DNA of 64,000 nt from an uncultured delta proteobacterium (lineage in GTDB: Bacteria; Myxococcota_A; Polyangia; Polyangiales; Polyangiaceae): the NCBI GenBank assembly GCA_963841435.1, contig CAWJCS010000002.1, positions 384,001 to 448,000 on the forward strand. The letters are read 5' to 3'. Positions 542 to 33,209 of this stretch are shown piece by piece. The notes beneath the pieces are model-generated. The model made no database searches. It saw only the letters and a list, made by a program, of their open reading frames with translations, and was not told where the DNA came from. The position numbers were made by a program, and so were the translations under genes. Each line of letters begins with the position of its first letter. Position 1 is the stretch's first letter.

Positions 542-568
542 TTCGGCAGGTCAGGGGTCGCCGTTGCA
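542..568 (-). promoter_or_regulatory. Putative sigma-28-like promoter (TGCAACG-N14-GCCGAA) for the kinase at 456
   Basis: Plus strand reads TTCGGC (542-547), 14 nt, CGTTGCA (562-568); same motif and spacing as the other intergenic sites. Confidence 0.65.
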
Positions 569-733
569 GCTTTTTGCTGGGGGCGCACCTCGGGTCGGGC
601 GGAGCGGCCAAGCCGGGCAGGGCGAGCACCCGAGCGAAGGCGCGGCGACACGCGGACTGGGTCGTTCTGCTCGCGGTGGTCGCGGACAGACGGTCGCCGG
701 TCGCGGGGCGACTTCTCGCCCACAGCCGTTTTG

Positions 734-760
734 TGCAACGCTTGACCCCGCCCGGCCGAT
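734..760 (+). promoter_or_regulatory. Putative sigma-28-like promoter (TGCAACG-N14-GCCGAT)
   Basis: TGCAACG 734-740, GCCGAT 755-760, 10 nt before ATG 771. Confidence 0.7.
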
Positions 761-770
761 TGGTCCTACG

Positions 771-2740
771 ATGCGCACGTTGAATCGGTTCTTCGCCATT
801 GCTCTCGTCGCTGCGGCCTCTTACGCCCCGCTCGCGGGGTGCGGCAAGAGTGACCGTCCATGCGAGGAAACGCTGACTTGCCCCGGTACGATCCGGGCGG
901 GGTCTGCCGGTGCGGGCGCGACCAGTGGCAGCGGCGGAGCTGGCACCGGTGGCACGGGTGGCACGACTGGCGGTGGCGGTCGAGGCGGCGCTGCCGCCTC
1001 CGGTCAGGGCGGCGGGTCGGGAGACAGCGCTCTTGGCGGGGGCGGCGGGAGCGGGCAAAACGGGGGTGAAGGTGGAGCTGGCCTCTCCGACGAAGGTGGT
1101 GAGTCGGGAGAAGGCAATCTCGGCGGAGGCGGCAGCTCGCAAGGGGGCGGCGGCTCGGACGCGGGCCTCTCGCAAGATGGGTCCCCATGCTCGGCCGGCC
1201 CGGAGTGCGAGAGCGGGTATTGCGCCGACGGCGTCTGTTGCAATGGCCTCTGCGATGGGCAGTGTGAATCGTGCAAGGAAGGCGGCTCGGTGGGGACATG
1301 CACCCCCGTTCTGGGCACTCCGGTCGCGCCGCGCGCTGACTGCGCGGGGACCGCGCCTTGCAAAGGCGAATGCGACGGCAATGAGACCGAAGCCTGCACC
1401 TTTCCCGATAGCTCGGCCGTTTGTAGTGCCGCCATCTGCACGAACGGCCAGATCACGACCGCGTCGGTTTGCAACGGCTCGGGGGCCTGCACCACGACCA
1501 CCAACAGTGCCTGCCCAGCCGGTGGCTGTGCTCCCGGCAACATGGCGTGCGCGACCAGCTGCACGTCGAGCTCCTGCGGTGCCGGCACCTATTGTGATAC
1601 GACGGGCGCCTGCGTCACGACGCTCGGTCCCGGGCAGAGCTGCTCGGCCGACGTGCAGTGTGGGTCCGGACACTGCGTTCGACGGCGTGTGCTGCGAGAC
1701 TTCCTGCACGGGCCAGTGCATGATCTGCAACTCTGCCGGGAGCTGCGTGCGCAAGACATCCGGAGCTCCAGCGAATGGTCGCGCTGCTTGCACGAGCAGC
1801 GGCACGACTTGCGGCGGCACCTGCAACGGCACTTCGGACACCTGCGCCTATCCTGGCTCGAGCACGAGCTGCGCGACCCCCACGTGCTCCACCGACACGA
1901 CGCAGGTCAACTCGATGGCGTGCAACGGACAGGGCGCCTGCGCGCCGCAGACGATGAGCTGCAACTCCTCATCGTATTGCAAAGGTGGCGCGTGCGTTAC
2001 GAAGGTCGCCAACGGTGGCTCGTGCCAGGGCAGCAACCAGTGCCAAAGCGCAAACTGCTCCACGGATGCCGTCACCGCCACGAGCATTTGCTGCCAGGCG
2101 GGCCGTTCGAACTGCGGCAGCTGCGTTCGACCTGCAGAGCGACGCCTCGCATTGCGGCAGTTGCTCGAATGCTTGCGGCGCGAACCGGGCCTGCCAGAGC
2201 GCGACGTGCCAGTGCACGGGCTACGCGTTCCCCCCGGCATGCGGTCGGTGCGGAAGCTTCGGCTTCGAGTCGGGCACCACGGAAGGCTGGGTCGCGGACA
2301 CCGACCCCAATTTTCCAGTCAACGGCGGCGCCAACAACGGGGTCACGAACGTCACGTTCACCCAGACTCGAGTCCACGACGGCAGCTATGGCCTGGCTGT
2401 CCCCGGCCTCACGAGCTCCGAGGTCGTTTCCGTTGCCGTACCACTGTGTACGGGATCAGCGTCCGTCGCACTCGGCGGCTTCACGATGTCGGCCTGGGTT
2501 TATCTCACGGGTACGACGTTGGACTCGCTTGCGTTCCTGTTCCTCGACGCTTGGAATGCCACGTCGCAAGTCAGTAGTCCCGTCCTGACGGGTAACAACA
2601 TCACGATGAACACCTGGCACCACGTGACGGCAACGTTCAGCTCCGCCATCCAGGCCGACCACGTGGCCATCCGGCTCAACCCGAATACGGCCTGGACCGG
2701 CACGATGTACATCGACAGCGTCGACGTCACGGGCCCGTGA
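771..2740 (+). CDS. Cys-rich repeat lipoprotein with Gly/Ser-rich linker and C-terminal carbohydrate-binding-like beta-sandwich; two +1 frameshifts (~1678, ~2126)
   Basis: MRTLNRFFAIALVAAASYAPLAGC lipobox. Repeats of the C.SG.C.DGVCC type continue across ORFs 471..2588, 910..2577 and 1985..2740. C-terminus FGFESGTTEGW...MYIDSVDV. Confidence 0.8.
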
Positions 2741-2744
2741 GCCC

Positions 2745-4613
2745 ATGAAGGCACCGAAGGCGTCGCAGGACCCGCTGGAGCGGGGGCTCAAGCTACAGCG
2801 CAGTGGGCGCACGAAAGAGGCGGAGTCGGCCTTCCGGCAGCTGATCTCGAAGAACGCACGGCACCACCGGGCGCTGTCCGCGCTCGGCATTCTCATGTTC
2901 GAGACCGGGCGCGTCGAGGAAGCGACTCGCTATCTCGAGCGAGCCGTCCAGGTCGAGCCAAACCCCAAATATCTGACGAACCTCGGCGAGGTCTACCGGC
3001 GACAAGGTCGATTGGACGTCGCCGCGGAGGCATTCGGACGGATCCTCGAAACCGAGCCGAGCTATCCGGACGCGCGCCTGAACCTTGCTTCGGTCCTCGG
3101 CGAGGCGGGCGTCTACGCGCCGGCGCTCGAGCTGCTCCAGCAAGCGGCGGCGTTCGGTCCCGACGGGCCACGCCTCCGGGTTACTCTCGCGTGGGTACTG
3201 TTCCGCCTCAATCGGCCCGACGAATCGTTGGTCCACGCCCGGCGCGCCGTCGAGCTTGCTCCGGACCTCGCATCGGCTCACGGGCAGCTCGGCGACGCCC
3301 TCGATGCGACGGGCGAAAAGGCCGCGGCCCTCGAGAGCTACCGCCGCGCCACCGAGCTCGACCCCTCCAACGACCGTTCTCACAGCGACCTCATCGTCGC
3401 GATGCTCTCGGGTCCGGACTACGACGCCCGGGCCGTCTTCACCGAAGCGCGCGCCTGGGCCGAGCGCCACGCAGAGCCGCTACGAAAGTACCTGCGCGCC
3501 CACGAAAACGACAAAGATCCCGAGCGCCGCCTACGCATCGGCTACGTCTCACCCGATTTTCGGGCGCACGCGATTCAGCAGTTCCTGGTGCCTCTCTTCG
3601 AGCATCACGAAAGGGCCGCATTCGAGATCTTCTTGTATTCGTCCGTGGATCGGCCGGACGCGGAGACCGAATGGTATCGGACGTTCGCGGGGGACCACTT
3701 TCGCGACATTCGACCGCTCGATGACGTTGCGGCCGCCGAGCTCGTCCGCCGCGACCGCGTGGACATTCTGGTCGATCTGGCCCTCCACAGCGCGGGGGGC
3801 CGCCTCAGGACCTTCGCGTGCAAGCCGGCGCCCGTGCAAATGAGCTGGCTCGGCTACGTCGGAACGACGGGCCTCGACACCATCGACTATCGCATCACCG
3901 ATCCTTTCGTCGATCCGCCCGGCACCGAGCTCGGCGCCTACTCCGAGGCCTGCCTCCACTTGCCCGAGACGCTGTGGTGCTACTCGGCGCTCGACACCGA
4001 GCTTTCAGTCGGTGCCCTGCCTGCCCTCGGCGCGGGCCACGTCACGTTCGGTTCTCAGAACACCTACCGCAAGCTCCACGACGCGGTCTTCGTGCTCTGG
4101 GCGCGAGTGCTGAATGCGGTGCCACGGTCGCGACTGTTCCTCTACGCAGAAGAGCATGCGCGCGAGCGGCTCCGCCGAGTGTTCGCTCACGAGGGGATTG
4201 ACGCGGACCGGATCGTGCTCGGAGGCCGGGTTTCGCGCCACGAGTACCTCGAGCGCTATGGTCGCATCGACATCGGGCTCGACACGTTCCCGTTCAACGG
4301 GGCGACCACGACGCTCGACGCGGCGTGGATGGGCGTGCCGGTCGTCAGCCTGAGCGGCTCCTCCGGGTTGCAGCGTGCCGGGGTCAGCATCGCCACGAAC
4401 CTCGGACTTCCCGAGCTTTTCGCGAGCTCCGAGGACGGGTTCGTCGAAACGGCCACCGCGCTCGCGCGCGACCTCGATCGGTTGAGCAAGCTTCGCGCCG
4501 AGCTTCGCTCCCGACTCGAAACGTCGCCGCTCGGAGACGCGCCGCGCTTCGCGCGCCATCTCGAAGCGGCCTATCGTACGGCGTGGCGGCGCTACTGCTC
4601 GGCGCCCGGCTGA
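2745..4613 (+). CDS. TPR-containing O-GlcNAc transferase / SPINDLY-like glycosyltransferase (GT41)
   Basis: N-terminal TPRs; RLRIGYVSPDFRAH, DILVDLALH, KPAPVQMSWLGYVGTTG, DIGLDTFPFNGATTTLDAAWMGVPVV motifs. Confidence 0.92.
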   Translation: MKAPKASQDPLERGLKLQRSGRTKEAESAFRQLISKNARHHRALSALGILMFETGRVEEATRYLERAVQVEPNPKYLTNLGEVYRRQGRLDVAAEAFGRILETEPSYPDARLNLASVLGEAGVYAPALELLQQAAAFGPDGPRLRVTLAWVLFRLNRPDESLVHARRAVELAPDLASAHGQLGDALDATGEKAAALESYRRATELDPSNDRSHSDLIVAMLSGPDYDARAVFTEARAWAERHAEPLRKYLRAHENDKDPERRLRIGYVSPDFRAHAIQQFLVPLFEHHERAAFEIFLYSSVDRPDAETEWYRTFAGDHFRDIRPLDDVAAAELVRRDRVDILVDLALHSAGGRLRTFACKPAPVQMSWLGYVGTTGLDTIDYRITDPFVDPPGTELGAYSEACLHLPETLWCYSALDTELSVGALPALGAGHVTFGSQNTYRKLHDAVFVLWARVLNAVPRSRLFLYAEEHARERLRRVFAHEGIDADRIVLGGRVSRHEYLERYGRIDIGLDTFPFNGATTTLDAAWMGVPVVSLSGSSGLQRAGVSIATNLGLPELFASSEDGFVETATALARDLDRLSKLRAELRSRLETSPLGDAPRFARHLEAAYRTAWRRYCSAPG

Positions 4614-4636
4614 GGGCTCACCCGTCGCCTCCTTCT

Positions 4637-7220: not shown

Positions 7221-10200
7221 CTACCGAGACACCACGAAACGAGCAATCTCGGCAAAAGGGGCCATGCCGCCAGGGCTCTTCACTAGGTCCTGCAAGACAT
7301 AGTCCTCGAACATGTGTGCTTGCTGCTCAACGCCCGCCATTAGGAAGCGCAAGAACATCTCGTGGGGGGCGCTGCTCGCCGCGTACGCGTACGGATCGAT
7401 CCCCAGGAGGGAGCCTCCGATACCCAAAGAAAGACCGTCGGCCGTGACCGAAAGGAAATGCCCGTGGGATCGTTGCCAAACGTGAAACGCCTCGTGGGCG
7501 AGCGTTCCGGCGGCGTTGAGACTCTTGAAATTGACTTCGTTCGCAGCGTTCGACTTCACAAAATAGCTGGGCTTGAGCCAGATCTTCCGGCCGTACGGAT
7601 TCATCCCCACCGCGAACTTGCGCAATGCGGCGGGCATCGCCTCGACGTCGATAGAGTCGTAGTCGAGCGAACCACCATAGTAGCGCTTCAGAAACGCCCG
7701 CTCGTTCGCCGTGAGCGGACGCTTTCCATCTGCGTCCACATGATTGATCGGGTCGTTCCCACAGTACGCGTACACGTTCGTGTCCCCAGCCCCGAACCCG
7801 ATCGGATCCTTCGAAAGCCAGCGTCCGAGCGCGCCCGAGTAGTCTCGCGCGCCGAAGCGGGTGTAGCCGGTGTAAGCGTCGTCGAGGCCGCCCGCGAAAC
7901 CGAAGGGCTGGAAACCGGGGTTGGTGTCGCCCGTGACGTGGCCGAAGGCGTCGTAGTCGAGCTTTTGTTCGACGACGCCGGTCTGGGCGTTGACGACGAG
8001 GCGCACGCTGCCGACGTGGTCCTTGATGACGCGGTAAGGGACGCCGGCGCGCAGGATGTAGTCGGGGGCGCCGCCGATGGCGTCGTCGGCGTAGATGAAG
8101 TGCATGAAGATGCCGGCAGAGTTGACCTGGCCGACGGGACGCAGGCCGTCGCGATAGACCCACGCAGCGTCGAACTTACCGTCCACCTGGCGGGCGACGC
8201 GGCGGCCGAGGCCGTCCACCTTGTAGCTGATGACTCGCGTCGTACCCGAGCGGTTCTGCGTGACGGACAGGAGGTTGCCGAGCGCGTCGTAGACGAGCTC
8301 GTTGGCGTCGTCGCCGTCGCTCATGCGCAAGAGGTCGCCCTGCGGAGTTGCCTCGACGTCGGTGCTACCGAAGCGCGTCAGGCGATCCTGAGCATCGTAG
8401 TCGGCGTCGGCGACGAGGGCGCCATCGACGCTCACCGAAGTGCGGTTGCCGTTCGCGTCGTAGTCGTACTCCGTCGTGGTGCCGTTGACCGTCTCCTTCA
8501 CCAGCCGGCCGAGCTCGTCGTAGTCGTAGTCGATGCCGCGCTCGCCGTTGCCGATGATTTCGTCGATGTGCGTGATGCGGCCCAGTGCGTCACGCTCGAG
8601 CTTCTCGGTGAAGTTGACGTTGCCCTGGAAGGCCGCACGCAGACGCGACGGCTCGCCAAAACCATTGTAGTCGGTGGCCGTGGTCACCGTGCCGAGCGTC
8701 GTGTTCGTGATGAACCCGCTCTTCGCGTCACGCTCGATTTGGTACGTGACGTTGTTGGCGGTGGCCGAGGTCACGAGGCCGTCGTCGTCGTACGTGAACT
8801 TCGCCGTGCTCGAGCCGTTGACGGTCATCGAGGCGAGGAAGAAATTCTCGTCGTACTTGGCGGTGACGCTGCCGTCGATGGCGCCTGACCAGGTGCTGCC
8901 CGTCCAGAGTGGCCCGTCGTGGCTCAGCGTGACTTTCACGCTGTCCGAGCGATTGACGGACGTGAGCATGCCGCCCGAGTCGTAGCCATAGCTGATGGTC
9001 GCGTCGGGGATCTCGAGCGACTTCAAGCGGCCGCTCGCGTCGTCGTAGTGAAAGTCGAGGTTTTGACCGTCGGAGCGCGCGATCTGCAAGAGCTGCCGGT
9101 CGTCGTTGTAGTCGTAGCGGGCGCCGCCCACGGGCAGGTCGTTCTTGCCCGACCCGGAAACGGCCGGGGGCGTGCTGAGCTCGAGCAGGCTCGTCTTGGG
9201 CTGGTACGCGAAGGTGTGCGCGCCGCGGCCCGGAGGCGTGAGCGACAGGAGATTGTCGTCGTCGTCGTAGTCGAACGTGACCGCTTCGTCGTCGGGGCGG
9301 AGCAGCGACTGGATGCGCCCCACGAGATCCGACTCGTACTTCACGCGGTTCCCTTCAGGGTCTTCGCGCTGGGTTAGAAAGCCGTTGGCGTCGTATTCAT
9401 AGGCGACGCGGCGGACGTTGCCGTCGGCGCTCGCTGTCGTCTCGATGAGGCGCCCGAGCTCGTCGTACTCGAAGTGCAGCGACGGCAGCCCCGCCGCGAC
9501 GACGTTCGGTGCGGCGGCCGCGCTCGTCGAGCGTCGTCGTTCTCTGCCGGCCCACCGGCGTCGTCGTCGTGATGCTCCGATCGTCACGCAGGTAGAGCGT
9601 CTCGAACAACCGACCGTTCACGTCGGTGAGCTCGTCCCATTCCTCGACCGACAGCGCATTTTTGATGTCCGTCAGGCGCTTGCCGCGCATCTGGGCAACC
9701 TCGAGCGTGGAGCCGCTCGGAAGCTTGGTGGTGACGGTGCCGGGGTAGAGGGCCTGAGCGCCAAAGGCGGGGTCAGGGAGCAGCAGCGCGGTGGTCGTGC
9801 TGCCGTCAGCGCTTTTGAGCGTCCGGCTGATGGCCGTGTCGTCCCAGCGCACGATGCTGCTGTCGGGCAGATGGACCACGCGCTCGAGCGTCCCGCCGAG
9901 CCCTGCGACGAAATCGTAGGTCGTCTGGCGGCCGGCAGCGGTGGTGACCGAAACGCTCGTGCCGCCTTCGATCGCAACGCGCTCCAGGGTTTCCGTGTAG
10001 CCCGTCGGGTCGGTCGTGCTCGTGAGCGCGCCGTCCACGTACACCGCGTTGGTGATGCCACCGAGCGGGTCGGTGACTTTGGAAATTAGATCCGCGTCGT
10101 ACTCGAACGCGGTATCCCGACCGAGCGGGTCCGTGACTTTGTCGATACGGCCGCGATCGTCGAGCGTGACTTTGGTTTCTTGCAGGAAGGGCCCCTTGAA

Positions 10201-13200: not shown

Positions 13201-13221
13201 AGGGCGAGGGGGGAGCGTCAT
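7221..13221 (-). CDS. Teneurin-like lipoprotein / RHS polymorphic toxin (Cys/Asp motif, carboxypeptidase-regulatory-like domain, FN-plug, NHL propeller, YD shell, RHS core, HExxH tip); +1 frameshift ~9508
   Basis: MTLPPRPRASLCLLFLLVAAC lipobox; ETACDNGADDDHDGRADCDDLDC; VRGKIVDRAGEALAGVRVS...DGLFDLAVNGGG; NHL repeats (TVAGTGTPGFSGDGG); YD repeats; RDYSGALGRWLSKDPIG...YAYCGNDPINHVDADG; AHEAFHVWQ. Joins ORFs 9397..13617 and 7221..9587. Confidence 0.88.
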
Positions 13222-13229: not shown

Positions 13230-13256
13230 ATCGGGCGCGCGAAAACGCTCGTTGCA
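13230..13256 (-). promoter_or_regulatory. Putative sigma-28-like promoter (TGCAACG-N14-CCCGAT) for the teneurin-like toxin
   Basis: Minus strand TGCAACG agcgttttcgcgcg CCCGAT, 8 nt before ATG 13221. Confidence 0.7.
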
Positions 13257-13288: not shown

Positions 13289-13315
13289 CGCAACGAGCGG
13301 GGCGCGGCGACCGAA
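13289..13315 (+). promoter_or_regulatory. Putative sigma-28-like promoter (CGCAACG-N14-ACCGAA) for the first Flp pilin
   Basis: CGCAACG 13289-13295, ACCGAA 13310-13315, just upstream of GTG 13324 / ATG 13327. Confidence 0.6.
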
Positions 13316-14428: not shown

Positions 14429-14442
14429 GCTCCGGGGTCGCG

Positions 14443-23177: not shown

Positions 23178-23178
23178 G

Positions 23179-24093: not shown

Positions 24094-24926
24094 CTCATTG
24101 GGTGGACGTTCACAGGCCGGGCGCCGCCGCCGAGCGGTTCGCCCTCGAAGGTACGCTCGTTTTCATCGTCGAGGATGGCGAGGGTAGGCTCGTGCCGCGC
24201 GACGACGCCTCGGGCCGCCCCGGCATCGAGCTGGTTCCGGGAAGCGCCGGCGTGAAAATCGCGGTGCGACGGGGCTTTCCAGGTCGAGCTCGGGCACACG
24301 GCGCGGAGGTGCAGCAAACGCTGCTCGCCTGGGGCGACGATCTGTTCGTGGACGACGTGCGCCTCGCGTTCCTTCAGCGCGCCAAAGGCGGAAGCCGAGT
24401 GTTCGTGCTCGTCGCGACGGTGCTCGCGGGCGCCACGGTGGTCCTCGGCGCGCTCCGCGAACCGAGCGCGCGCGGTAGAGCGAACGATCCGAAGCCACCC
24501 CCGCTCGCCGCGGCCGAAAAGAGCTGCACTGCGTCCGGCGAGGCCGCGGAAGCCCGCGCGCGCGAAGCCGAACGACGCGCGGACGCCAAGCGCGCGCGCT
24601 ATCCATTCGATCCGAGCGACGGCGTGGAGACGCTCCCCCTGCTCGAGGAGGCCGCCTCGTGCTTCCGCGCGGCGGGTCGCATCGAAGACGCGCGGCGCTC
24701 GCGCGCGGCGCTCGACACGTGGCGCGAGCGCCTCGACGGCGACTACGCCTCGCTCAGGCTCGCTCTGCGCGGTGCGTTGGCGGAAAACCGCAGCAACGCA
24801 GCCCTCGAGGCGGTGCGCGATCTGGAGAGCCTCTTGTCCGGGAGGCGCGACGATCCCTACTTCGAGTGGCTGGAAAGCAAGCGCCGTGAGCTCGAGCGGA
24901 CGCTCGCACGCTCGTCGAAGCGCTAG
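24090..24926 (+). CDS. Membrane protein with degenerate FHA-like N-terminus and helical periplasmic domain
   Basis: GTGA overlap with tadC; beta-rich N-terminus ending LAWGDDLFVDDVRLAF; central TM helix. Confidence 0.65.
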   Translation: MTHWVDVHRPGAAAERFALEGTLVFIVEDGEGRLVPRDDASGRPGIELVPGSAGVKIAVRRGFPGRARAHGAEVQQTLLAWGDDLFVDDVRLAFLQRAKGGSRVFVLVATVLAGATVVLGALREPSARGRANDPKPPPLAAAEKSCTASGEAAEARAREAERRADAKRARYPFDPSDGVETLPLLEEAASCFRAAGRIEDARRSRAALDTWRERLDGDYASLRLALRGALAENRSNAALEAVRDLESLLSGRRDDPYFEWLESKRRELERTLARSSKR

Positions 24927-25029
24927 CGGGAGCGCGGCGCGCGGCGGGCAGCGGGCAGCGGGCAGGGCGCGCTCCGCGAGCTCTGGTTTCGTCGAAGCCT
25001 CGGCGGGTACCGCGCGTCGCGTCTCGCGA

Positions 25030-25180
25030 AACGCCCGCGGGGCGCGTCGTGTGCAGCGCCTTCTGCGGAACGCCCGCGGGGCGCGTCGTGCGCAGCGCCT
25101 TCTGCGGAACGCCCGCGGGGCGCGTCGTGCGGAACGCCTTCTGCGGAACGCCCGCGGGGCGCGTCGTGCGGAACGCCCGC
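25030..25180 (+). repeat. 39-bp tandem repeat (about 3.8 copies) with internal hairpin, REP-like
   Basis: AACGCCCGCGGGGCGCGTCGTG(t/c)G(c/g)A(g/a)CGCCTTCTGCGG units start at 25030, 25069, 25108, 25147; CGCCC-GCG-GGGCG stem; next to RAYT. Confidence 0.85.
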
Positions 25181-25334
25181 AGCGTGCGTCTTGCGCAGCG
25201 CGTCTTGCGCAGCGCGCGCAGCGTGCGGGCGCTCACGCGTTCTCGATGTGGTCCGTGTCTGGGGAGCGTGCGGAGGGGCCGCCGCATGAGTTGCTAAATT
25301 ATAAGAACCAGGGTATCATGTAGCCTTATTCAAG

Positions 25335-26115
25335 TTGGCTCCCGCTCGCCACCGTCGCTACGCAAGCCAACCCCAGCCACGCTCGGGGTCGCGCCAATTA
25401 CTCCTCCCTTTCGAGTCGAGCTGGGGAGGCGCGCGCAAGGGTGCCGGCCGCAAGCCGGGCCCCCACCCGCGCACGCCGCATCGCGCGCGCCCGAAGCACT
25501 ACTTCGGTCACCCCGTGCACGTCACGTTGCGGGCTCGCTTGGGCTCGCTGCGCAGCCAGGCCCTCTTTCCGACGGTGCGCCTCGCCATTTCGCGGGCCAC
25601 ACGCCAGGCGCCGGAGCGCTTTCGCATCATCCACTTCTCGGTGCAGTCCAACCACCTGCACCTGCTCGTCGAGGCTGGCGAGCGGCGCGCCCTCACGGCC
25701 GGCGTGCACGGGCTCGCCATCCGCATCACCCGCTACGTCAACGACCTCTTGATGCGCCGCGGGTCGCTCTGGGCCGACCGGTGGCACGGGCGCGCCCTGA
25801 AAGCACCCCGAGAAGCGCGGAAATGCCCTCGTCTACGTGCTTTCGAATTTTCGGAAGCATGCGTCGCGCTCCGTGCCGGCGGGGGTGGATCCGTGCTCAT
25901 CGGGCGTGTGGTTCCACGGCTGGCACGGTGTCGGTAGAGGGCCCCCGCCGCTTTTCGGGAGAGCGCCGCTCGGACGGCACGGCGAAGAGGTGCCCGTCTC
26001 GCAGCCGCGCACCTGGCTGTTGCGCGAAGGGTTCCTCAAAGCCGGGCGCGTGAGGTTCCACGAGGCCCCGCGAGGCTCCCCTCGCGAAACCCCGAAAGCC
26101 TCCGCTCCGCCCTAA
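25335..26115 (+). mobile_element. REP-associated tyrosine transposase (RAYT, Y1/HUH family); +1 frameshift ~25822
   Basis: WGGARKGAGRKP, PVHVTLR, HFSVQSNHLHLLVEA (HUH); removing one A gives REARNALVYVLSNFRKH with the catalytic Tyr. Confidence 0.85.
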
Positions 26116-26141
26116 GCAGCAATCGGGAAGCAGCAATCGGG
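26114..26141 (+). repeat. 14-bp tandem direct repeat at the RAYT stop codon
   Basis: AAGCAGCAATCGGG twice. Confidence 0.8.
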
Positions 26142-26349
26142 CGCCGGGGCGCAAACGAGGCCGAGGATTTTTTGAGGCGACCGCCGTCCCTCGCCGAAAC
26201 GCCGCCGTGCCGCGCCGTTCCACCGAAGGTCCGGAAATGGGCGGCGTCAAAGGCCCGCCGCTGCGCACCCTGGCGCTGCATGGGGCGCTGCACGGGTAGG
26301 TCACGAGGGCGCCCTCGGCGCGCTGGGCGGCTTTGCGCGGGAAGAAACC

Positions 26350-26375
26350 TGCAACGACGCCGGCGTGGGGCCGAT
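26350..26375 (+). promoter_or_regulatory. Putative sigma-28-like promoter (TGCAACG-N13-GCCGAT) for the TPR-cpaF2 operon
   Basis: TGCAACG 26350-26356, GCCGAT 26370-26375, 8 nt before GTG 26384; spacer one base shorter than the other sites. Confidence 0.6.
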
Positions 26376-26383: not shown

Positions 26384-27043
26384 GTGCCTGCGAACGCAAC
26401 CACCCGCTCGCCCCGCGTTCTCCTTGTGGCCACCGCGCTCTTCGCGTGCCTGGTCTGCTCGGCCTGCGGCGCAAGGGGTCCCGAGGATGCCGCCAGCGTG
26501 GGCGCCCACGACGGGGCGCCGAGCGCGACATGGCTCGCCGCGGAAGGCGAGCGGGCGGCGCTCCGCGGCGACACGGTGCGCGCCGAGCAGTACCTCGCCC
26601 TCGCGGTCGAGCGCGGGTACGACGAGCGCCGCGCTCTTCCCCTGCTGCTCTCGGTTTGCATCAGAGGGTCGCGGCTGCGCTCCGCCCTGAACCACGCCGA
26701 GCCCTACCTGCGCGATCACCCCGACGATCAATCGCTCCGCTACCTGGTCGCCACGCTCGACGTGAGCCTCGGCGACGAAGCGGGCGCACGGCGGGAGCTC
26801 GAGGCGCTTTTACGGGGCGACCCTGCCCACGGGGCCGCCCTCTACCTGCTCGGTACCCTGGAGCTCGACCGCGAGCCCGAGCGGGCAGCGGATCTGTTCC
26901 GGAGCTACCTCGAGAAGGAGCCGGACGGTCCGCACGCCGCTGACGTACGCGAACAACTGCGTGACCTCGACCTCGAGCGAGCGCACGCCACGACGCAGCG
27001 AAGCGCGCTCGCGGCGCGGGCAGCCAAGCGGGGCTTCCGATGA
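26384..27043 (+). CDS. TPR lipoprotein, TadD/pilotin-like
   Basis: ALFACLVCSAC lipobox-like signal; TPR helices (ALYLLGTL...AADLFRSYLEKEPDGPHA); start position uncertain. Confidence 0.7.
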   Translation: MPANATTRSPRVLLVATALFACLVCSACGARGPEDAASVGAHDGAPSATWLAAEGERAALRGDTVRAEQYLALAVERGYDERRALPLLLSVCIRGSRLRSALNHAEPYLRDHPDDQSLRYLVATLDVSLGDEAGARRELEALLRGDPAHGAALYLLGTLELDREPERAADLFRSYLEKEPDGPHAADVREQLRDLDLERAHATTQRSALAARAAKRGFR

Positions 27044-28161
27044 TTCCGACGAGCGTGTACTCGTCGTCGATCCGCACGTTCTTGGCGCCCGTTGCCGAGC
27101 TCCTCGACGACGCGAGCGTCACCGAGATTTTGGTGAACGGGCCGGATAGCGTGTTCGTCGAGCGGAAGGGGCGCCTCGCGCGTACGGAGGTACGGTTTCG
27201 CTCCGCGGATCAGTTGCTCTCGGCGCTCAGGGTCGTCGCGCAGTACGTCGGACGCCCGCTCGACGAGCATCACCCCATCCTGGAAGCGCGCCTGCCCGAT
27301 GGTTCGCGCTTGGAAGCGGTGCTCGCGCCCATCGCCTCACCGGGCCCCTCGCTGTCGATTCGCCGTTTCTCCAAGGACAAGCTCACGTTGGAGCGACTTT
27401 TGGAGCACGGTGCGCTCACGTCGGATGCGACCGAGACGCTGCGCGTGCTCATCGAGTGCAAGCAGAACGTCGTCGTCGCCGGGGGCACCGGGTCGGGGAA
27501 GACGTCGCTTTTGAACGCGCTCTCCTCGCTGATTCCACGCGACGAGCGCGTGATCGTGATCGAGGATGCGCGCGAGCTCGCTCTGCAGCGCGAGCACGTC
27601 GTGCAGCTCGAAACCCGCGCGCCGGACGCTCGCGGGCAAAACGCCGTCACCGTCCGGGATCTGTTCAAGGCGTCGCTCAGGATGCGCCCCGATCGCATCG
27701 TGCTCGGCGAGATCCGGGGGGGCGAGGCACTCGACCTCGTCCAGGCGATGACGAGCGGGCATGGCGGCTGTCTGGCCACCGTTCACGCCACATTTCCCAT
27801 CGACACCTTGAACCGGCTCGAGACGCTCGCCCTGATGGGGGGCGTCGATTTGCCGCTGGCCGCGCTGCGGGCGCAGCTCGCGTCCGCGGTCGACATCGTG
27901 GTTCAGACGGCTCGCTTGCGGGACGGACGGCGCATGGTGACGCACGTGACCGAAGTCGTCGGCACGGACCCGGTGCGGGGCTACCGCATCAAGGATCTCT
28001 TCGTGGCCGTGCCAGGCGAAACTGCGTCGGGGGCCAGCGGACCGATGGAGCTCGTTGCGACGGGTGTGCTGCCCGACTGTCTGCCGATGCTCAGAGCCCA
28101 CGGCGCGGATCTGCCGCGAGCGGTGCTCGACCACGCGCGGCGTGCCCGTGACGCTGCTTGA
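27040..28161 (+). CDS. cpaF: Second CpaF/TadA ATPase, no FHA domain
   Basis: GGTGSGKTS Walker A; LRMRPDRIVLGEIRGGE; MTSGHGGCLATVHA. Confidence 0.93.
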   Translation: MIPTSVYSSSIRTFLAPVAELLDDASVTEILVNGPDSVFVERKGRLARTEVRFRSADQLLSALRVVAQYVGRPLDEHHPILEARLPDGSRLEAVLAPIASPGPSLSIRRFSKDKLTLERLLEHGALTSDATETLRVLIECKQNVVVAGGTGSGKTSLLNALSSLIPRDERVIVIEDARELALQREHVVQLETRAPDARGQNAVTVRDLFKASLRMRPDRIVLGEIRGGEALDLVQAMTSGHGGCLATVHATFPIDTLNRLETLALMGGVDLPLAALRAQLASAVDIVVQTARLRDGRRMVTHVTEVVGTDPVRGYRIKDLFVAVPGETASGASGPMELVATGVLPDCLPMLRAHGADLPRAVLDHARRARDAA

Positions 28162-29833
28162 ACGGAGAACCAGGATGCTAGACGATCAGCGAGTATCGAG
28201 GATCTTGGGCATGGAGCTTGCTACTCGTCGCGGCTCGCTCAGGCTCTGGTTTCGCCCCGGCGACGACCGCGCTTTCGTGGTCGGCAACTGTGCCGGCGCC
28301 GACCTGCGCCTGACGAGCGCCAGCGCCGGCGCGGTGGCGTTCCATCTGGAGCGACGAGGTGCGCGAGTCGAGCTCTTTCCCGGCGATGCCTCGCGCGAAA
28401 TCTACGTCGATGCCGGACGCGTGACCCGACCGGTGCTGCTCCGGCAGACCTCGGTCATCGACGTCGGCGAGGATCGAATCGTCGCCACGACTTTCGACGC
28501 GACCGAGCTCGCCCAGACCGTGACGTTTCCGCGCGCAGGTGCCGAGCGCGACCGCGTCACCGCGCCGCAACGCGAGAGCGACCCAACCCGACTCGGCCTG
28601 CCGGCCCCCGAGCTCGCCGGGCCCGTGACCGACGCGCTGCCCACCGTCGCCTATGCGCCGGGCCGAACGCGCGAGCCGGCGCCCTCGCCTGAGCCCCCGC
28701 GCTGGGAACGCACGGAGCCGCTGAACTTCGCCGAGCGCCCGGTCGTGCGGGAGCCGCTGGGACCGACGGGCACGCAGATCGTCAGCGCTGCGGAGCTCAA
28801 CCCACCCAGGGCTCCGGCGCCCGAGCCGCGACCCGACGCGGTCGAGCGAAGCGAAACGCCGGCGCCCCCGACTCCCGCGCCCGAAGCGGACCCGGACGGC
28901 GTCGCTCTCACTCGAAAGCGCGACGCTGCTTCCGAGCCGCCTGCGCCGAAGCAAGCGACGATCGCCGATGAGCCGGCGCAACGCAGCGCACCCTCGGCGG
29001 CCTCGCCGCCGGCTCACGTCGACAAGGCGCCGGAGCGGCGCCGCAAGGACATCGGCCGCGCCACCACGGCGCTCGATGTGCGAGCGCTCGCACCGCCGAT
29101 GGTTGAAAAGGCGCCCGCGCGGCCGGCGACACGGCGCCCGAGCCCAGCTGTCGAGCAGCCCACGCTCGTGTCCCCTCCGGCGCGGGGCGCCGGCTTTTTG
29201 GGCGCGTTAGGGCGCTTCGCGCGGGGGCTCGCCACAGCCGGCAAGCGCTCACCCGCGGAGAATCTGGCGGCGGTCGGACGCGTCGCACGAAAGCGACCGC
29301 TCGTCGTCTTCACGGTTTCGATCATGCTCGCGTGTGGTGGTGCGGTGGCTCTGACGGCGCTGTCGCGACTCGGACCGAGGAGCGCCCCTCGCACGCCGCA
29401 GCCGCCACTTCACTCGCAAGTCGCGCGCCCCGCCGGCGACGCGAGCGCCAGAGCTTCCGGCGCGCTACGCCCCGCGCCGCTCGGCGGCCCGCGCACCGCG
29501 ATCTCCGGGAGCGCACCACCCGCGGCGAGCGAAAGCCCCCCGCCCCCGACCAGCGCCGTCCCCGAGCTCTCGATCCGCGCACCGGCGCCCGCTGCCGAGC
29601 CTTTCGCATCGCCGGCGCCCGCCGGGGCCGATCCGGACGTCGCGGCCGCCATCGACGCGCTCGTCGCTGGTCGCGATGCCGAGGCCCGCCTCGCGTATGC
29701 ACGCCTCGCGTCGCGCCCGGGTGCAAACCCCGCCTACGCCGCGCTCGCCGCGCTGCTCACGCGTGCCGCGGGCGACGTGTGCCAGGGAGCCGCCGCCGAG
29801 GACCACCCGTTCTGCCCGGAGGTGAAGCGATGA
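28148..29833 (+). CDS. Pro-rich membrane protein with degenerate FHA-like N-terminus
   Basis: Beta-rich N-terminus (FVVGNCAGADLRL...IDVGEDRIV), long Pro/Thr-rich region, one TM helix; start uncertain (28148 or 28175). Confidence 0.65.
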   Translation: MTLLERRTRMLDDQRVSRILGMELATRRGSLRLWFRPGDDRAFVVGNCAGADLRLTSASAGAVAFHLERRGARVELFPGDASREIYVDAGRVTRPVLLRQTSVIDVGEDRIVATTFDATELAQTVTFPRAGAERDRVTAPQRESDPTRLGLPAPELAGPVTDALPTVAYAPGRTREPAPSPEPPRWERTEPLNFAERPVVREPLGPTGTQIVSAAELNPPRAPAPEPRPDAVERSETPAPPTPAPEADPDGVALTRKRDAASEPPAPKQATIADEPAQRSAPSAASPPAHVDKAPERRRKDIGRATTALDVRALAPPMVEKAPARPATRRPSPAVEQPTLVSPPARGAGFLGALGRFARGLATAGKRSPAENLAAVGRVARKRPLVVFTVSIMLACGGAVALTALSRLGPRSAPRTPQPPLHSQVARPAGDASARASGALRPAPLGGPRTAISGSAPPAASESPPPPTSAVPELSIRAPAPAAEPFASPAPAGADPDVAAAIDALVAGRDAEARLAYARLASRPGANPAYAALAALLTRAAGDVCQGAAAEDHPFCPEVKR

Positions 29834-30504
29834 GAATGCTGCGTGTGCTCGTGCTGGTTTTGGTCACGACCGCTTGCCACCGCGCGCCACCGCCCGAACG
29901 TCCGCGGTTCGCGGTTGCGGTTCGGCTCACCGTGGACGGCCACGAGCCCTTGCCGGGCGCGATCATCCTCAGGGACGAACAACCCTTCGGCGTCACGGAT
30001 GCGGAGGGTCGCGTGCTCTCGACGATTGGCGCCGTGGAAGGTCAGAACGTCAAGCTCAGGGCCCGCTGCCCCGCAGGGTTCGTCGATGGCAAGGTCGAAG
30101 CGTCCGTGCGGCTCGCGCTGACGAGGCGCGTCGAAAGCCGCGCTCCGGAAGCGCAGAAGGTGGAGCTCACCTGCAAGAAGCTCACCCGCGCCGCGGTGCT
30201 GGTCGTCCGTGCGCCGGGGGGTGGCACCCTACCGGTGCGAGTCAACGGACAGCCGGCCGTTACCACCGACGCGGCCGGCAACGCCCATGTGCTGATGGAA
30301 GTGCGCCGCGACCTTGGAGCCGTCGAGGTCGAGATCGACACGAGCGACAAGAAGCACCTCGTGCCCAGAACCCCGCGTCGGCTCTTTGCGCTCGACGGCA
30401 GGGACGCCGTGCTCGTGCTCGAGCAAAGCTTCTCCGTTCACAACCGACAGAAGGCGCCCGCCACGCCCGCTCCCCAGCGGCACGTCCCCACGAGAATCGA
30501 CTGA
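29830..30504 (+). CDS. Hypothetical lipoprotein with two beta-sandwich-like domains
   Basis: MRMLRVLVLVLVTTAC lipobox; GVTDAEG and TTDAAG repeats; ATGA overlap. Confidence 0.7.
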   Translation: MRMLRVLVLVLVTTACHRAPPPERPRFAVAVRLTVDGHEPLPGAIILRDEQPFGVTDAEGRVLSTIGAVEGQNVKLRARCPAGFVDGKVEASVRLALTRRVESRAPEAQKVELTCKKLTRAAVLVVRAPGGGTLPVRVNGQPAVTTDAAGNAHVLMEVRRDLGAVEVEIDTSDKKHLVPRTPRRLFALDGRDAVLVLEQSFSVHNRQKAPATPAPQRHVPTRID

Positions 30505-30509
30505 GCCGC

Positions 30510-30833
30510 ATGACGGGCTCGGCCAACACCAAGAAAGCGGCTTGCCGGCAACCAACGGGGGACCCGGACTTCGATCCTCCGGCATCGGTAGAAACGTTGC
30601 TCGTTTCCGGAAACCTGATGCCCGACCTCGACGGGCGCGTGCTCGGCGCGCTCGTTCCGTGGGTCTCCGAGCTCACGCACGAGGAGCTCGGCTGGGTGCG
30701 TGCGGTGCTGCTCGCCCAGCTGACGATGGATCCGGAGCTGCGTGGTCTCGTGGCCCGCGTCGCCCGCGCTCGGGAAGCCGCGCCGAGCGACGCTCCGGGT
30801 GGCCCCCTCGCGCCGTCCGGGCGAAGGGAGTAA
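30510..30833 (+). CDS. Small helical hypothetical protein, paralog of the next gene
   Basis: EELGWVRAVLLAQLTMDPELRGLV aligns with the downstream protein; start uncertain. Confidence 0.5.
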   Translation: MTGSANTKKAACRQPTGDPDFDPPASVETLLVSGNLMPDLDGRVLGALVPWVSELTHEELGWVRAVLLAQLTMDPELRGLVARVARAREAAPSDAPGGPLAPSGRRE

Positions 30834-30846
30834 GCTGGATGCCGTC

Positions 30847-31119
30847 ATGAGCGCTCAGGGAAGCTCGGGAGCTCTCGATCGAGCCGGGAACGGCGGCAGC
30901 GCCGCGCTCGAACGGCTACGCCGCGGCGAGATCACGCTGGACGCGTACCTCGATTTTCGTGCAGACGAGAGCGTCAAGGCGCTCTCAGGCTCCATCCCGG
31001 AGGAGCGGCTCGAGATGATCCGTCTTGCCATGCGCGAACAGCTCGCCACCGATCCGGTGCTGCTCGCGATGGTGGAGGCCGTGACCGGCGGCAAGCCCGA
31101 GGCGAATCCGGCGCGCTGA
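30847..31119 (+). CDS. Small helical hypothetical protein upstream of the sigma factor
   Basis: LERLRRGEITLDAYLD...ERLEMIRLAMREQLATDPVLLAMV. Confidence 0.65.
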   Translation: MSAQGSSGALDRAGNGGSAALERLRRGEITLDAYLDFRADESVKALSGSIPEERLEMIRLAMREQLATDPVLLAMVEAVTGGKPEANPAR

Positions 31120-31134
31120 AACGAGGGGGCTGGC

Positions 31135-31875
31135 TTGACTGACCGAGCGCCGACACCGCTGAGACCTCGCGCACCGGGTGTGGAGGACCCAGCGGAAGTG
31201 CTCGCCAGATTCCACGAGCACCTCGAGCTCGTGAACATCATCGCGGCGCAGGTGCGCCGGAGCGTCGGCCCGTCCGCCGATCGCGACGACCTCGTTGCCA
31301 ATGGGCGCGAAGGCTTGCTCGAAGCCGCGCGGCGCTACGACGCGACCCGGGGCGTCCCCTTCAAGCTCTACGCCAACTACCGGGTGCGCGGAGCCATGAT
31401 CGACGGCGTCCGGAAGTCCGCCGCGCTGCCGCGCCGCACCTACGAACGCCTCGTCGCGCTCCAGGCGTCGAGCGCGGTGAGCGAAGGTGAGCTCGAGCAT
31501 TCCGGCGTTGCGAAGTGGTTGCCGACGGACGTTGCCGAAGCCGAGGATCTCTTGGCCGAGCACCTTTCGGGCATGGCGGCGGCCGCTGCTCTCGCCACGC
31601 TGACGGGCCGCGGCTACGACGGCGACGCTCGCACCGAGCCCGGAGCGTCCGTTTCGCCCGAAGAAGAGCTGTCGCGCGCGGAGCTCATCGCCCGGGTGAA
31701 GCAAGCCGTCGAGGAGCTGTCGCCGGAGGCTGCGGCCGTCGTGAGGCGACACTATCTCGAAGGCGAGCGGCTCGAAGACATCGCGCGCGACTACGAGATG
31801 AGCAAATCGTGGGCGAGCCGCCTGCTCACGCGTACCACCGCTCGGCTCGCGAAACGCCTCGCGTCACTCGCCTAG
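31135..31875 (+). CDS. RNA polymerase sigma factor, FliA/WhiG (sigma-28) family
   Basis: DDLVANGREGLLEAARRYDATRGVPFKLYANYRVRGAMIDGVRK...LPRR (region 2 and 3 start); C-terminal HTH LEDIARDYEMSKSWASRL; start uncertain. Confidence 0.88.
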   Translation: MTDRAPTPLRPRAPGVEDPAEVLARFHEHLELVNIIAAQVRRSVGPSADRDDLVANGREGLLEAARRYDATRGVPFKLYANYRVRGAMIDGVRKSAALPRRTYERLVALQASSAVSEGELEHSGVAKWLPTDVAEAEDLLAEHLSGMAAAAALATLTGRGYDGDARTEPGASVSPEEELSRAELIARVKQAVEELSPEAAAVVRRHYLEGERLEDIARDYEMSKSWASRLLTRTTARLAKRLASLA

Positions 31876-31899
31876 CGCCATCCAACGAGGAGCGAGTGG

Positions 31900-32235
31900 C
31901 TAGGGCTCTTGACCGGGCCTTGGCCGCAACCCGCTCGACATGGCCGTAACGAGCCAGACACCCATGGCTTCCGCCGCCGGGCCGTCGGCAGTGAGCTCCA
32001 CGCCACCGAGGCGCGTGCGCCGCTCGTCGTAGCTTTCGCCCGCTTCGGTCATGTGGCGCCCGAGATCGTCGAGGTCGAGCAGCACGGGGTAGGCCTCACC
32101 GTGAACGTCGAAGAAGGGCTCGAGATACTCGGGAACCCAAGCTGGCTGGACGTGCACGCGAAACGCCTCGTTTTCCTCGACGCAGAAAAGATCGAGGCGT
32201 GCGCTCGGACCCCGCCTCCCTGGCCGGCTCGTCAT
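31900..32235 (-). CDS. Hypothetical protein
   Basis: Globular-looking acidic ORF directly downstream of the kinase on the same strand. Confidence 0.55.
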   Translation of the reverse strand: MTSRPGRRGPSARLDLFCVEENEAFRVHVQPAWVPEYLEPFFDVHGEAYPVLLDLDDLGRHMTEAGESYDERRTRLGGVELTADGPAAEAMGVWLVTAMSSGLRPRPGQEP

Positions 32236-32286
32236 GCACACGAAGATAGCACCGTCCAGGGCCTCGCGGGGCGCAGGACCACGTCC

Positions 32287-33162
32287 CTAGCGCGCGAGGA
32301 ACCCGAGCAGCTCCGCGCGGAAGGCGTCGGCCGACCGAGGGCGATGCTCGGGACGAGGCTCGAGGGCACGCATCACGACGGCGTCGAGCCCGTGCGCAAT
32401 GGGAACCGACGAGACCCGGGAGGGCGGCGACGGCCGCTCTCTACCGCCGTCATGAGGCCCGCGACCCGTGAGCATCAAGTAGAGGACGGCGGCGAGCGAG
32501 TAGAGGTCGCTCTGGGGCCCCAGACGTTCGCCGCGACCCGCCTCGGGGCTCATGAAACGCAGCGACCCAACGACGGTCCCCGTGTCCGTAGGAACCACGG
32601 GGGGCGCCGGAGCAGCGGGCGGCGCGCCGGGGAGAACGCGGGCGAGCCCGAAATCGAGGACCTTCAACGTACGGCGAAAGCCAGGTGGCGCGTGCAAGAA
32701 CAGGTTCTCCGGCTTCACGTCGCGATGAACGACGCCGAGCCGATGGGCCGCCGCGAGGCCGGAGAGAGCCTGGCAGGCGAGGTCGACCGCTTCCGGCCCT
32801 GGCAGACGCGTCGAGCGCGAGAGCTCGCGAGCCAGCGTGTGGCCCTCGAGCAGCTCGAGGACCAGGCAGGGGTTGTCCCCCGCGAACCAGAAGTCCACGA
32901 TGTCGACGACGTTGGGATGGCGAAGCCCCGCGATGATCTGGGCCTCGACGCGGACCCGGTCCAGAAGGCTCGGATCCTTCGCGCGGAACGGGTAAAGCAC
33001 CTTGAGCGCAAACTGCTTGAGCAACACCTCGTGCTCGACGAGGTACACGGCGCTCATCGCACCCCCACCCAGGCGCCGCAAAAGCCGGTAGGGCTGCCCC
33101 GCGACCAGATCCTCGGCCGCGGTCGAGGGGCCGACGGGTAGGCGGCGGGTCGTGTGGCCCAC
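32287..33162 (-). CDS. Ser/Thr protein kinase, kinase domain only
   Basis: LGGGAMSAVY, FALKVL, HRDVKPEN, DFGLA, FMSPE, DLYSL; start approximate. Confidence 0.92.
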   Translation of the reverse strand: MGHTTRRLPVGPSTAAEDLVAGQPYRLLRRLGGGAMSAVYLVEHEVLLKQFALKVLYPFRAKDPSLLDRVRVEAQIIAGLRHPNVVDIVDFWFAGDNPCLVLELLEGHTLARELSRSTRLPGPEAVDLACQALSGLAAAHRLGVVHRDVKPENLFLHAPPGFRRTLKVLDFGLARVLPGAPPAAPAPPVVPTDTGTVVGSLRFMSPEAGRGERLGPQSDLYSLAAVLYLMLTGRGPHDGGRERPSPPSRVSSVPIAHGLDAVVMRALEPRPEHRPRSADAFRAELLGFLAR

Positions 33163-33182
33163 GGGCGCCAAGCTACCATTCT

Positions 33183-33209
33183 TGCAACGCAAGCGCTGCC
33201 GTGGCCGAT
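33183..33209 (+). promoter_or_regulatory. Putative sigma-28-like promoter (TGCAACG-N14-GCCGAT) for the kinase at 33222
   Basis: TGCAACG 33183-33189, GCCGAT 33204-33209, between the two divergent kinases. Confidence 0.7.

Follow-up and report, generated by a model that had tools for sequence, protein, structure and literature searches.

How are the Tad/Kil prey-killing machines of myxobacteria switched on? The accessible part of the founding Kil paper does not describe it (PMC8460266). A 64,000-nucleotide (nt) stretch from an uncultured member of the Polyangiaceae (C2:384001-448000 of genome G000; hereafter the window) raises this question in a concrete form. It carries a Kil-like Tad pilus locus, a teneurin/Rhs-like toxin, a gene for a FliA/WhiG-like sigma factor and eight copies of a bipartite motif, YGCAACG-N14-VCCGAW, in which N14 denotes a 14-nt spacer. 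An earlier reading of this DNA, here called the original prediction, took the eight copies for the promoters of a non-flagellar sigma-28 regulon. We ask whether the copies are promoters, which sigma factor would read them, and how far the regulon extends.

The motif is real and exceeds chance. All eight copies were found where the original prediction had placed them, seven with the N14 spacer and one with N13. In a pattern search, YGCAACG-N14-VCCGAW has 7 matches within the window, each at the predicted coordinates and strand, against a mean of 0.09 and a maximum of 1 in 100 dinucleotide-preserving shuffles; this statistic is inflated because the pattern was fitted to the same sites that it counts. 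The single N13 copy, 26350-26375(+), is not significant by itself, since 5 of 100 shuffles contain at least one such match. The spacers of the eight sites have no sequence in common, and the motif is therefore not a repeat element. Every copy is oriented into a gene. That all are intergenic, as had been claimed, is borne out by our gene calls, with the copy at 33183 overlapping the start of a divergent kinase gene. At six of the eight, namely 734(+), 13230(-), 13289(+), 18654(+), 26350(+) and 33183(+), a start codon follows 3-12 nt past CCGAW, and these six look leaderless. A short A/T-rich stretch lies 5' of the -35 half at the local sites, against the G+C-rich background of the genome.

The whole genome (7.78 Mb, 6 contigs, ~68% G+C, 95% complete) was then used as a background, with genes called by a crude codon-usage caller made for this analysis (6,509 genes with a total coverage of 87%). 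Genome-wide there are 20 matches to the N14 pattern, compared with 4-11 for each of nine other spacers (N10-N13 and N15-N19). Seven of the 20 are intergenic and all seven lie inside the window; the remaining 13 fall within called genes, and each of them starts CGCAACG. TGCAACG-N15-CCGAW occurs in 6 copies, all within the window. The shorter core GCAAC-Nx-CCGAW is more informative. With N16 there are 26 exact intergenic copies, 7 of them inside the window, and with N15 there are 15, one of them inside; each of the 11 other spacers tried has 6-10. The intergenic excess of the core is thus confined to N15 and N16. A start codon of a long open reading frame (ORF) rich in G+C at third codon positions follows 6-13 nt past CCGAW in 10 cases at N16 and 4 at N15, versus 3 summed over the 11 other spacers. 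The box thus stands at a fixed short distance before starts and always points into the gene, and therefore resembles the -10 element of leaderless transcripts.

Some other scans were rejected or gave little. A one-mismatch scan with TGCAACG...CCGAW found no excess outside the window, which suggested a purely local regulon; this was overturned by the excess of the shorter core. Across 41 genomes, exact TGCAACG-N15-CCGAW gives scattered matches, often in Cys-rich coding repeats, and is clustered in G000 only, so the exact 7-mer TGCAACG is specific to G000. A start-codon-anchored scan without an intergenic filter was overwhelmed by in-frame internal codons. Separately, an identical 34-nt string beginning AAATGGACGCAAGACG, present in at least 7 places in G000 (Table 1), produces false one-mismatch motif matches; it probably stems from the terminus of a repeated mobile element.

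The available part of a recent study of sigma-28 homologs gives the family consensus as a -35 element xT(C/A)Ax, a 16-nt spacer and a -10 element GCCGA with an obligatory CGA (PMC13595943). CCGA is present at 8/8 local sites, with G before it at 5/8, and the spacer, counted from the 5-mer TGCAA, is 16 nt at 7/8 sites and 15 nt at 1/8. The likeness of the -10 box to that of FliA/WhiG, claimed originally, therefore holds as far as that consensus goes, and the spacer fits the consensus as well.

Conservation in relatives points in the same direction. Synteny of the entire pilus locus extends to G008 (same genus), G186, G217, G215 and G184. In 13 other genomes that have closer cpaB orthologs (identity of 46% or more), the region upstream of cpaB has the exact motif in 4/13 and a version with at most one mismatch in 11/13, at 35-101 nt before the approximate start; in shuffled controls the mean was 0.25 and the highest value 3. 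G186 has no more than a two-mismatch version (GCAGG) in front of cpaB. The motif also precedes the TPR-cpaF2 operon in G217 and G215 and the flp genes in G215 and G008. The intergenic surroundings are not conserved, and the motif therefore stands out as a footprint. None of 16 distant cpaB homologs has the motif upstream. Among these, TAnnnT boxes 7-9 nt before GTG (L066, L068, L074, L076-L078, L080 and L082) suggest that Tad/Kil genes of this family commonly give leaderless transcripts under sigma-70. Whole-genome counts of GCAAC-N15/16-CCGAW in five relatives (105-148 per genome versus 31-97 for a reversed control) are too noisy without gene maps. The promoter reading of the sites is well supported by this architecture and conservation, both read from sequence.

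The motif is associated with the sigma family in two unrelated genomic settings. In addition to the pilus locus, 34 sigma loci were examined, 23 of them of the same-genus core type. In 13 of these 23, GCAAC-N15/16-(C/T)CGA(A/C/T) lies within 160 nt 3' of the sigma stop codon, with a chance of ~0.002 per locus by rough base-composition arithmetic. In the seven of those loci that were inspected, an ATG 8-13 nt on opens a conserved gene of ~105 amino acids (aa) that matches no known family. The same sigma-then-motif arrangement recurs on a contig from a soil metagenome, which carries a 39% relative. The ~105-aa gene is not next to the core-type sigma copy of G000; its G000 homolog, at C4:664633-664941, is preceded by GAAAC-N16-CCGAT with the ATG 9 nt on. 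This association by proximity suggests that a sigma of the FliA-like family reads the motif. The ~105-aa protein itself (L037:5339-5656, with equivalents in L041, L043 and L046-L049) has a C-terminal LIALQAGIYRY..EAV.L..K.VDRA and matches no Pfam family; it might act as a partner of the core sigma or be a secreted substrate.

The sigma encoded in the window has FliA and WhiG as its closest known relatives. The best NCBIfam model, out of 46 matching models, is FliA_WhiG (TIGR02479), at 103 bits (E 2e-29), which is below the curated cut-off of 189.6 bits. The closest solved structure is Escherichia coli FliA (6pmi_F, E 6.5e-15), aligned over the full length (residues 28-245 versus 19-239), followed by 6pfj/6pfv, titled only 'RNA polymerase sigma factor', and 9wsf, a FliA; 6pfj is presumably WhiG-RsiG. 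Pfam matches regions 2 and 4 and gives no match to region 3, a stretch that the FliA alignment spans. Homologs are labelled FliA (JGI) or sigma-70 family from Polyangiaceae bacterium (NCBI), and a metagenome scan with this sigma found only 29-43% relatives on short contigs. The original assignment to the FliA/WhiG family is thus right as to nearest relatives and falls short of the curated threshold. Homologs occur in 40/41 related genomes and in 19/22 chosen genomes; the sigma is too widespread for its co-occurrence with the pilus locus to serve as evidence.

G000 has a second, core-type copy of the sigma at C5:614901-615596, 50% identical to the window sigma. The ordinary core-type copies are located between an HD-GYP response regulator and mnmA, tilS and ftsH. 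The local neighbourhood (small gene, sigma, 113-aa gene, kinases) is common only to G008:C450 and G022:C472. In a tree of 34 copies, the window sigma falls with its syntenic counterparts from G008 and G022 in a 100/100 clade, its own branch being long (0.97), and the C5 copy groups with the ordinary same-genus copies. By this phylogeny the window sigma is a fast-evolving, lineage-specific paralog. In the 17 of 37 homolog rows shown, the predicted -35-reading helix of region 4.2 is SKSWASRLLTRT (LLTRT) in the 13 closest homologs, including the local clade, and SKSWASRLHTRA (LHTRA) in 4 more distant core-type rows. The 113-aa gene, 31900-32241(-), is convergent with the sigma gene, is kept in G008 and G022 (58-59% identity) and has no family match.

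Seven same-strand genes run from 26384 to 31875 with gaps of at most 15 nt, the sigma gene being the last. A scan of this run found no sigma-70-like promoter, and terminators are not in excess (3 found versus 3.4 expected). Therefore, the sigma may be transcribed from the 26350 site. It would probably be co-transcribed from there in a positive feedback loop, and probably be held inactive by p90, a small protein encoded just upstream. In G008 and G022 the p90-sigma pair does not lie behind cpaF2 and has its own sigma-70-like leaderless promoter, GCGACA-N17-TACATT, at 7-8 nt from the ATG, so that the feedback is not a conserved trait. The self-activation of the original prediction is possible in the G000 arrangement, which these two relatives do not share.

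p90 belongs to a new family. Pfam, at E up to 10, gives no family for p90, p107 or p113, and thus no FlgM match, and NCBIfam gives none for p113 or for the 125-aa reading of the p90 ORF (30742-31119). Its 17 homologs are all without a name, and 3 of the 17 are on metagenome contigs that match in size contigs with close sigma homologs. p107 matches the p90 orthologs of G008 and G022 (E 7e-6 and 4e-5), not the window p90. In a model of the sigma-p90 complex, built from alignments of 38 rows for the sigma and 16 for p90, the score is 0.82, against 0.00 for the best of 3 controls. The score mark was reached by 116 of 157 solved complexes and by 2 of 215 mismatched pairs, counts that hold only roughly because our own alignments were used. 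Runs agree in at least 83% of contacts, and the predicted local distance difference test (pLDDT) value of the partner is at least 73. The modelled contacts involve sigma residues 39-43, 77-82, 101-155, 177-187 and 239-243. p90 is accordingly modelled as a sigma-binding protein and is a candidate anti-sigma factor. G000 also has a p90 paralog at C1:230025-230357(-), 43% identical, whose ATG follows a sigma-70-like TAGGAT box by 6 nt; upstream of this paralog lie two unknown 153-aa genes and ftsE/ftsX/M23-peptidase genes. Membership of this paralog in a type III secretion cluster was ruled out, as Pfam shows FtsEX, M23 peptidase and unknowns there.

We propose that the eight sites are promoters of sigma-28 (FliA/WhiG) geometry, with a -35 element GCAA(C), a spacer of 15-16 nt and a -10 element (G)CCGA(W). 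Transcription would probably start ~7-9 nt past CCGAW, and six of the eight transcripts would then be leaderless. All eight would be read by a polymerase with a FliA/WhiG-like sigma, from a group of sigmas found widely across this flagellum-less family of myxobacteria, and the sites would jointly switch on the Kil-like Tad pilus machine, two Flp pilins, the teneurin/Rhs-like toxin, a lipoprotein/glycosyltransferase operon and two Ser/Thr kinases. In G000 the local paralog at 31135-31875 would be the likely dedicated reader. This full model, including positive feedback and restraint by p90, is in our judgement probable, with moderate confidence. In addition to the family score below cut-off, the missing region 3 match and the feedback loop that is not conserved, several observations weigh against it. 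The relatives are kin, and counts across them overstate independence; the intergenic status of the sites depends on the crude gene caller; and FliA-FlgM complexes are already solved, so the success of the sigma-p90 model may reflect likeness to them. (T)GCAA(C) keeps the C and A of the sigma-28 -35 consensus, but G replaces T in 8/8 sites, and its AAC also recalls promoters of extracytoplasmic function (ECF) sigmas. G217, G215 and G184 have the same locus and motif, with the single sigma of the family on another contig; the core paralog is therefore presumably able to read such sites, and the local copy is a candidate reader. G000 itself retains the core copy. Finally, the locus sites of G008, a genome with a local-type sigma, are GCAACT/C/G, and the TGCAACG extension is therefore not tied to the local-type clade.

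It may be, then, that these sigma-28-type promoters are read mainly by the core paralog, with the local copy being redundant, narrower or a modulator. The three genomes just named speak for this, as do the ~20 further sites of G000 outside the window and the motif beside core-type sigma genes (GCAAC-N15/16-CCGAW), which is essentially identical to the local motif. Nevertheless, the local sites are a more uniform group: GCAAC is followed by G in 8/8 of them versus 5/33 intergenic N15/N16 sites elsewhere, T precedes it in 7/8, and the upstream sequence is A/T-rich. Moreover, the local copy sits within the locus beside its own predicted partner, p90, and the region 4.2 helix is altered in its closest homologs. 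We think mainly-core reading rather unlikely. Within the family-level reading, whether the local copy is the main reader seems about evenly balanced. The original claim that the 31135 sigma reads these promoters is backed by the comparative tie between motif and sigma family and qualified by the existence of the core paralog and by other genera that lack the local copy. ECF promoters have AAC in the -35 element and a CGT-type -10 box. A different sigma, for example one of the many ECF sigmas, might read the sites, the FliA-like genes being mere targets or neighbours; the AAC, the absent T of the sigma-28 -35 consensus, and the fact that the FliA-like assignment is built on proximity and family resemblance would all fit. 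However, the local -10 is CCGA(W) with a CGA core and not the CGT-type box, a scan of 55 window proteins revealed no other sigma gene, and the motif is found directly 3' of the sigma gene in the 13 of 23 same-genus loci and around the local copy. This makes a different sigma improbable. Even less credible is that the motif is an operator of a DNA-binding regulator and not a promoter. The two kinases and the FHA proteins of the locus hint at additional regulation, but the two halves form neither direct nor inverted repeats, the orientation is always that of the downstream gene, and the start codon 6-13 nt on in 14 intergenic N15/N16 cases, versus 3 for 11 other spacers, fits a -10 element of leaderless transcripts.

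The sigma-28-type regulon that we favour would not be limited to 542-33209, the span of the original prediction, because intergenic GCAAC-N16-CCGAW is in excess genome-wide. There are 33 intergenic N15/N16 sites of the GCAAC core outside the window, and ~20 further intergenic sites elsewhere would belong to the regulon; putative targets of outside sites are listed in Table 1. One of them is an FlhB/YscU-family gene, with an exact GCAAC-N16-CCGAT upstream (the site ending at C6:1050934, ATG 11 nt on). The idea that this gene belongs to a secretion cluster was ruled out: its neighbours are unrelated and the gene is an orphan. No Flagellin_N or Flg_bb_rod match was found in the 95%-complete genome. 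FlhB, FlhA and FliP could be what is left of a lost flagellum, or belong to a reduced type III system. As a tentative conjecture, with less than an even chance of being right, a sigma-28 lineage survived when Polyangiaceae-like myxobacteria lost the flagellum, and it now serves a contact-weapon programme. In this scenario the core copy would run a dispersed regulon (orphan FlhB, SpvB/Tc-type toxin, Ig-like surface proteins), and the duplicate, with its altered -35 helix, p90 as anti-sigma and TGCAACG as -35, would be a private switch for the pilus/teneurin-toxin island. If true, this would be a naturally insulated sigma/promoter pair born by duplication.

The coordinates are collected in Table 1. 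The target list of the original prediction (two kinases, the lipoprotein/glycosylation operon, the toxin, the Flp pilins, cpaB and TPR-cpaF2) is correct by Pfam, and the Kil-like Tad system is recognised by its Pfam matches: FHA-CpaF, secretin, CpaB, two T2SSF, Peptidase_A24 and, weakly, Flp_Fap. The two toxin ORFs, one teneurin-like and one Rhs/YD-shell, share 191 nt in different frames, and the same two-part layout is seen in the orthologs of G008 (G008:C450); the pair is either two genes or one gene with a frameshift. The 1.4-kb gap before site 7 (24926-26350) contains a 200-aa ORF with a weak match to an IS200-like Y1 transposase (E 5e-4). The 278-aa gene and the TPR gene are only ~86 nt apart in G008, which suggests an insertion between them in G000.

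Other features of the window lie further downstream. At 46728-56810(+), two giant hybrid histidine kinases, one of 1,784 aa with ten PAS domains and one of 1,450 aa with three receiver domains and a GAF, flank a single-domain response regulator; G+C in this region is 0.62-0.65 versus ~0.69. An IS66-family element at 60895-62994(+) consists of a TnpB-like Orf2 (60895-61275) and a DDE transposase (61390-62994). At 39913-42096(-), a gene with DUF4388 and a ParA/MinD-type ATPase is followed by two globin-domain genes.

Table 1. Motif sites, genes and other features (positions in the window unless a contig of G000 is named)
Feature	Position	Strand	Description
Site 1	542-568	(-)	TGCAACG-N14-GCCGAA; into Ser/Thr kinase gene 1-456 (extends beyond window); ATG 85 nt on
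Site 2	734-760	(+)	TGCAACG-N14-GCCGAT; ATG 10 nt on, 605-aa lipoprotein gene 771-2588
GT41/TPR glycosyltransferase	2745-4613		After the 605-aa lipoprotein gene (Pfam)
Teneurin/Rhs-like toxin ORF B	7221-9587	(-)	RHS repeat, teneurin YD-shell (Pfam)
Teneurin/Rhs-like toxin ORF A	9397-13221	(-)	TTR_TEN, TEN_NHL, RHS repeat (Pfam)
Site 3	13230-13256	(-)	TGCAACG-N14-CCCGAT; ATG of teneurin-like lipoprotein gene 8 nt on
Site 4	13289-13315	(+)	CGCAACG-N14-ACCGAA; GTG/ATG of Flp pilin 1 8/11 nt on
Flp pilin 1	13327-13509	(+)	Weak Flp_Fap match, E 0.0053, below cut-off (Pfam)
Site 5	13534-13560	(+)	TGCAACG-N14-ACCGAA; Flp pilin 2 start 65 nt on, Shine-Dalgarno-like AGGAG
Flp pilin 2	13626-13850	(+)	Flp-type, weak match
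Prepilin peptidase	13874-14428	(+)	Peptidase_A24 (Pfam)
TadE-like gene	14380-15171	(+)	Then three unknown genes up to 18630
Site 6	18654-18680	(+)	TGCAACG-N14-GCCGAT before cpaB; GTG 6 nt on, ATG at 45
Kil-like Tad core	18726-24926	(+)	cpaB (RcpC), secretin, FHA-CpaF, two T2SSF, 278-aa unknown
FHA-CpaF ATPase	20680-22320	(+)	FHA + T2SSE (Pfam)
Site 7	26350-26375	(+)	TGCAACG-N13-GCCGAT; GTG of TPR lipoprotein gene 8 nt on
TPR protein	26384-27043	(+)	
Second CpaF-type ATPase	27040-28161	(+)	
552-aa and 224-aa unknowns	up to 30504	(+)	Gaps of at most 14 nt across 26384-30504
p107	30510-30833	(+)	Diverged tandem paralog of p90
p90	30847-31119	(+)	Candidate anti-sigma, new family; adjoins sigma in G000, G008 and G022
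Sigma P0001	31135-31875	(+)	246 aa; Sigma70_r2 + r4 (Pfam); lineage-specific paralog
Divergent kinase gene	32287-33192		Its called start overlaps site 8
Site 8	33183-33209	(+)	TGCAACG-N14-GCCGAT; start 3 or 12 nt on
Ser/Thr kinase	33222-34340	(+)	ATG 12 nt past site 8
Weak candidate ninth site	37454-37478	(+)	GGAAC-N15-CCGAT after A-run; one mismatch, not above background
GT4 glycosyltransferase gene	37515-38534		36 nt past weak candidate ninth site
FlhB/YscU-family gene	C6:1049888-1050922	(-)	Putative target of outside site; only such gene in genome
1,820-aa SpvB + FG-GAP protein			Putative target of outside site
Two paralogous Big_5 proteins			Putative targets of outside sites
FHA-containing sigma-54 activator			Putative target of outside site
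XPB-type helicase			Putative target of outside site
FlhA homolog	C6:1570432-1572273		Single, dispersed
FliP homolog	C3:1004600-1005196		Single, dispersed
String beginning AAATGGACGCAAGACG	C3:327917, C3:1429279, C5:57519, C5:280788, C5:1202047, C6:102871, C6:794435		34 nt, probable end of repeated mobile element

Comparison with known systems shows both parallels and differences. FlgM contacts regions 2, 3 and 4 of FliA, and p90 is predicted by the model to contact the same three regions of the window sigma. The FliA-FlgM pair of E. coli/Salmonella (PDB 6pmi, 1rp3) gives the best sequence match and is likewise built on a group-3 sigma of ~240 aa. On the other hand, the full-length alignment is weak, p90 lacks the Pfam match of FlgM, and neither flagellin nor rod genes were found in G000. 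The FliA -35 element of enterics is TAAA, whereas that of the local sites is GCAA.

The pilus is best compared with the Kil system of Myxococcus xanthus, a Tad-like prey-killing apparatus of which the FHA-CpaF fusion is a mark (PMC8460266). In the accessible part of that paper, Kil has in common with the local locus the FHA-CpaF, secretin, platform proteins, prepilin peptidase, several pilins and many unknown genes, and differs from it in being split into two clusters and in having no dedicated sigma described. The local pilus is a candidate for a killing role. A full-text literature search brought up no paper on such a sigma, motif or anti-sigma in Myxococcota, and none that ties a FliA-like sigma to Tad/Kil machines there. 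What is new here is the proposed sigma-28-type regulon of a flagellum-less myxobacterium: it is tied to polymorphic toxins as well as to a Kil-like pilus, its sigma is duplicated, and a protein of a new family is the candidate anti-sigma. The presence of a short defined promoter, a candidate sigma and a candidate anti-sigma in one locus makes the proposal directly testable by reporter fusions.

The re-use of sigma-28 for pili as such is already known from Bdellovibrio and Actinomycetota. The repurposing proposed originally agrees with the lack of flagellin and rod matches in this genome and is, as pilus re-use, not without precedent. According to the available part of the Bdellovibrio study, FliA drives the TAD operon, including flp1 and flp2, in B. 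bacteriovorus and B. exovorus, as seen with promoter-lacZ fusions in an E. coli fliA deletion strain (PMC5430801). Like our locus, that case combines the sigma-28 family with flp/Tad genes, in a predator from the former delta-proteobacteria. Unlike G000, Bdellovibrio is flagellated and its FliA co-regulates flagellins, while in G000 the -35 differs, the sigma is duplicated and the system is known from sequence alone. WhiG homologs of Rubrobacter and other Actinomycetota have type IV pilus genes as targets, and in some of the species they are predicted to regulate themselves, as far as the accessible part of the 2026 study goes (PMC13595943). Those factors resemble the window sigma in being of the sigma-28 family without flagellar targets, with a similar promoter consensus and pilus genes as targets. 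They differ in phylum, and in an anti-sigma, RsiG, that acts with cyclic di-GMP, compared with an unrelated 90-aa candidate here; moreover, the pilus of our locus is of the Kil-like Tad kind and is linked to toxins. If true, this would be the third independent re-use of sigma-28 for pili, after Bdellovibrio and Actinomycetota, one in which the pilus is tied to polymorphic toxins and leaderless transcripts and in which the duplicated sigma could show regulon insulation evolving.

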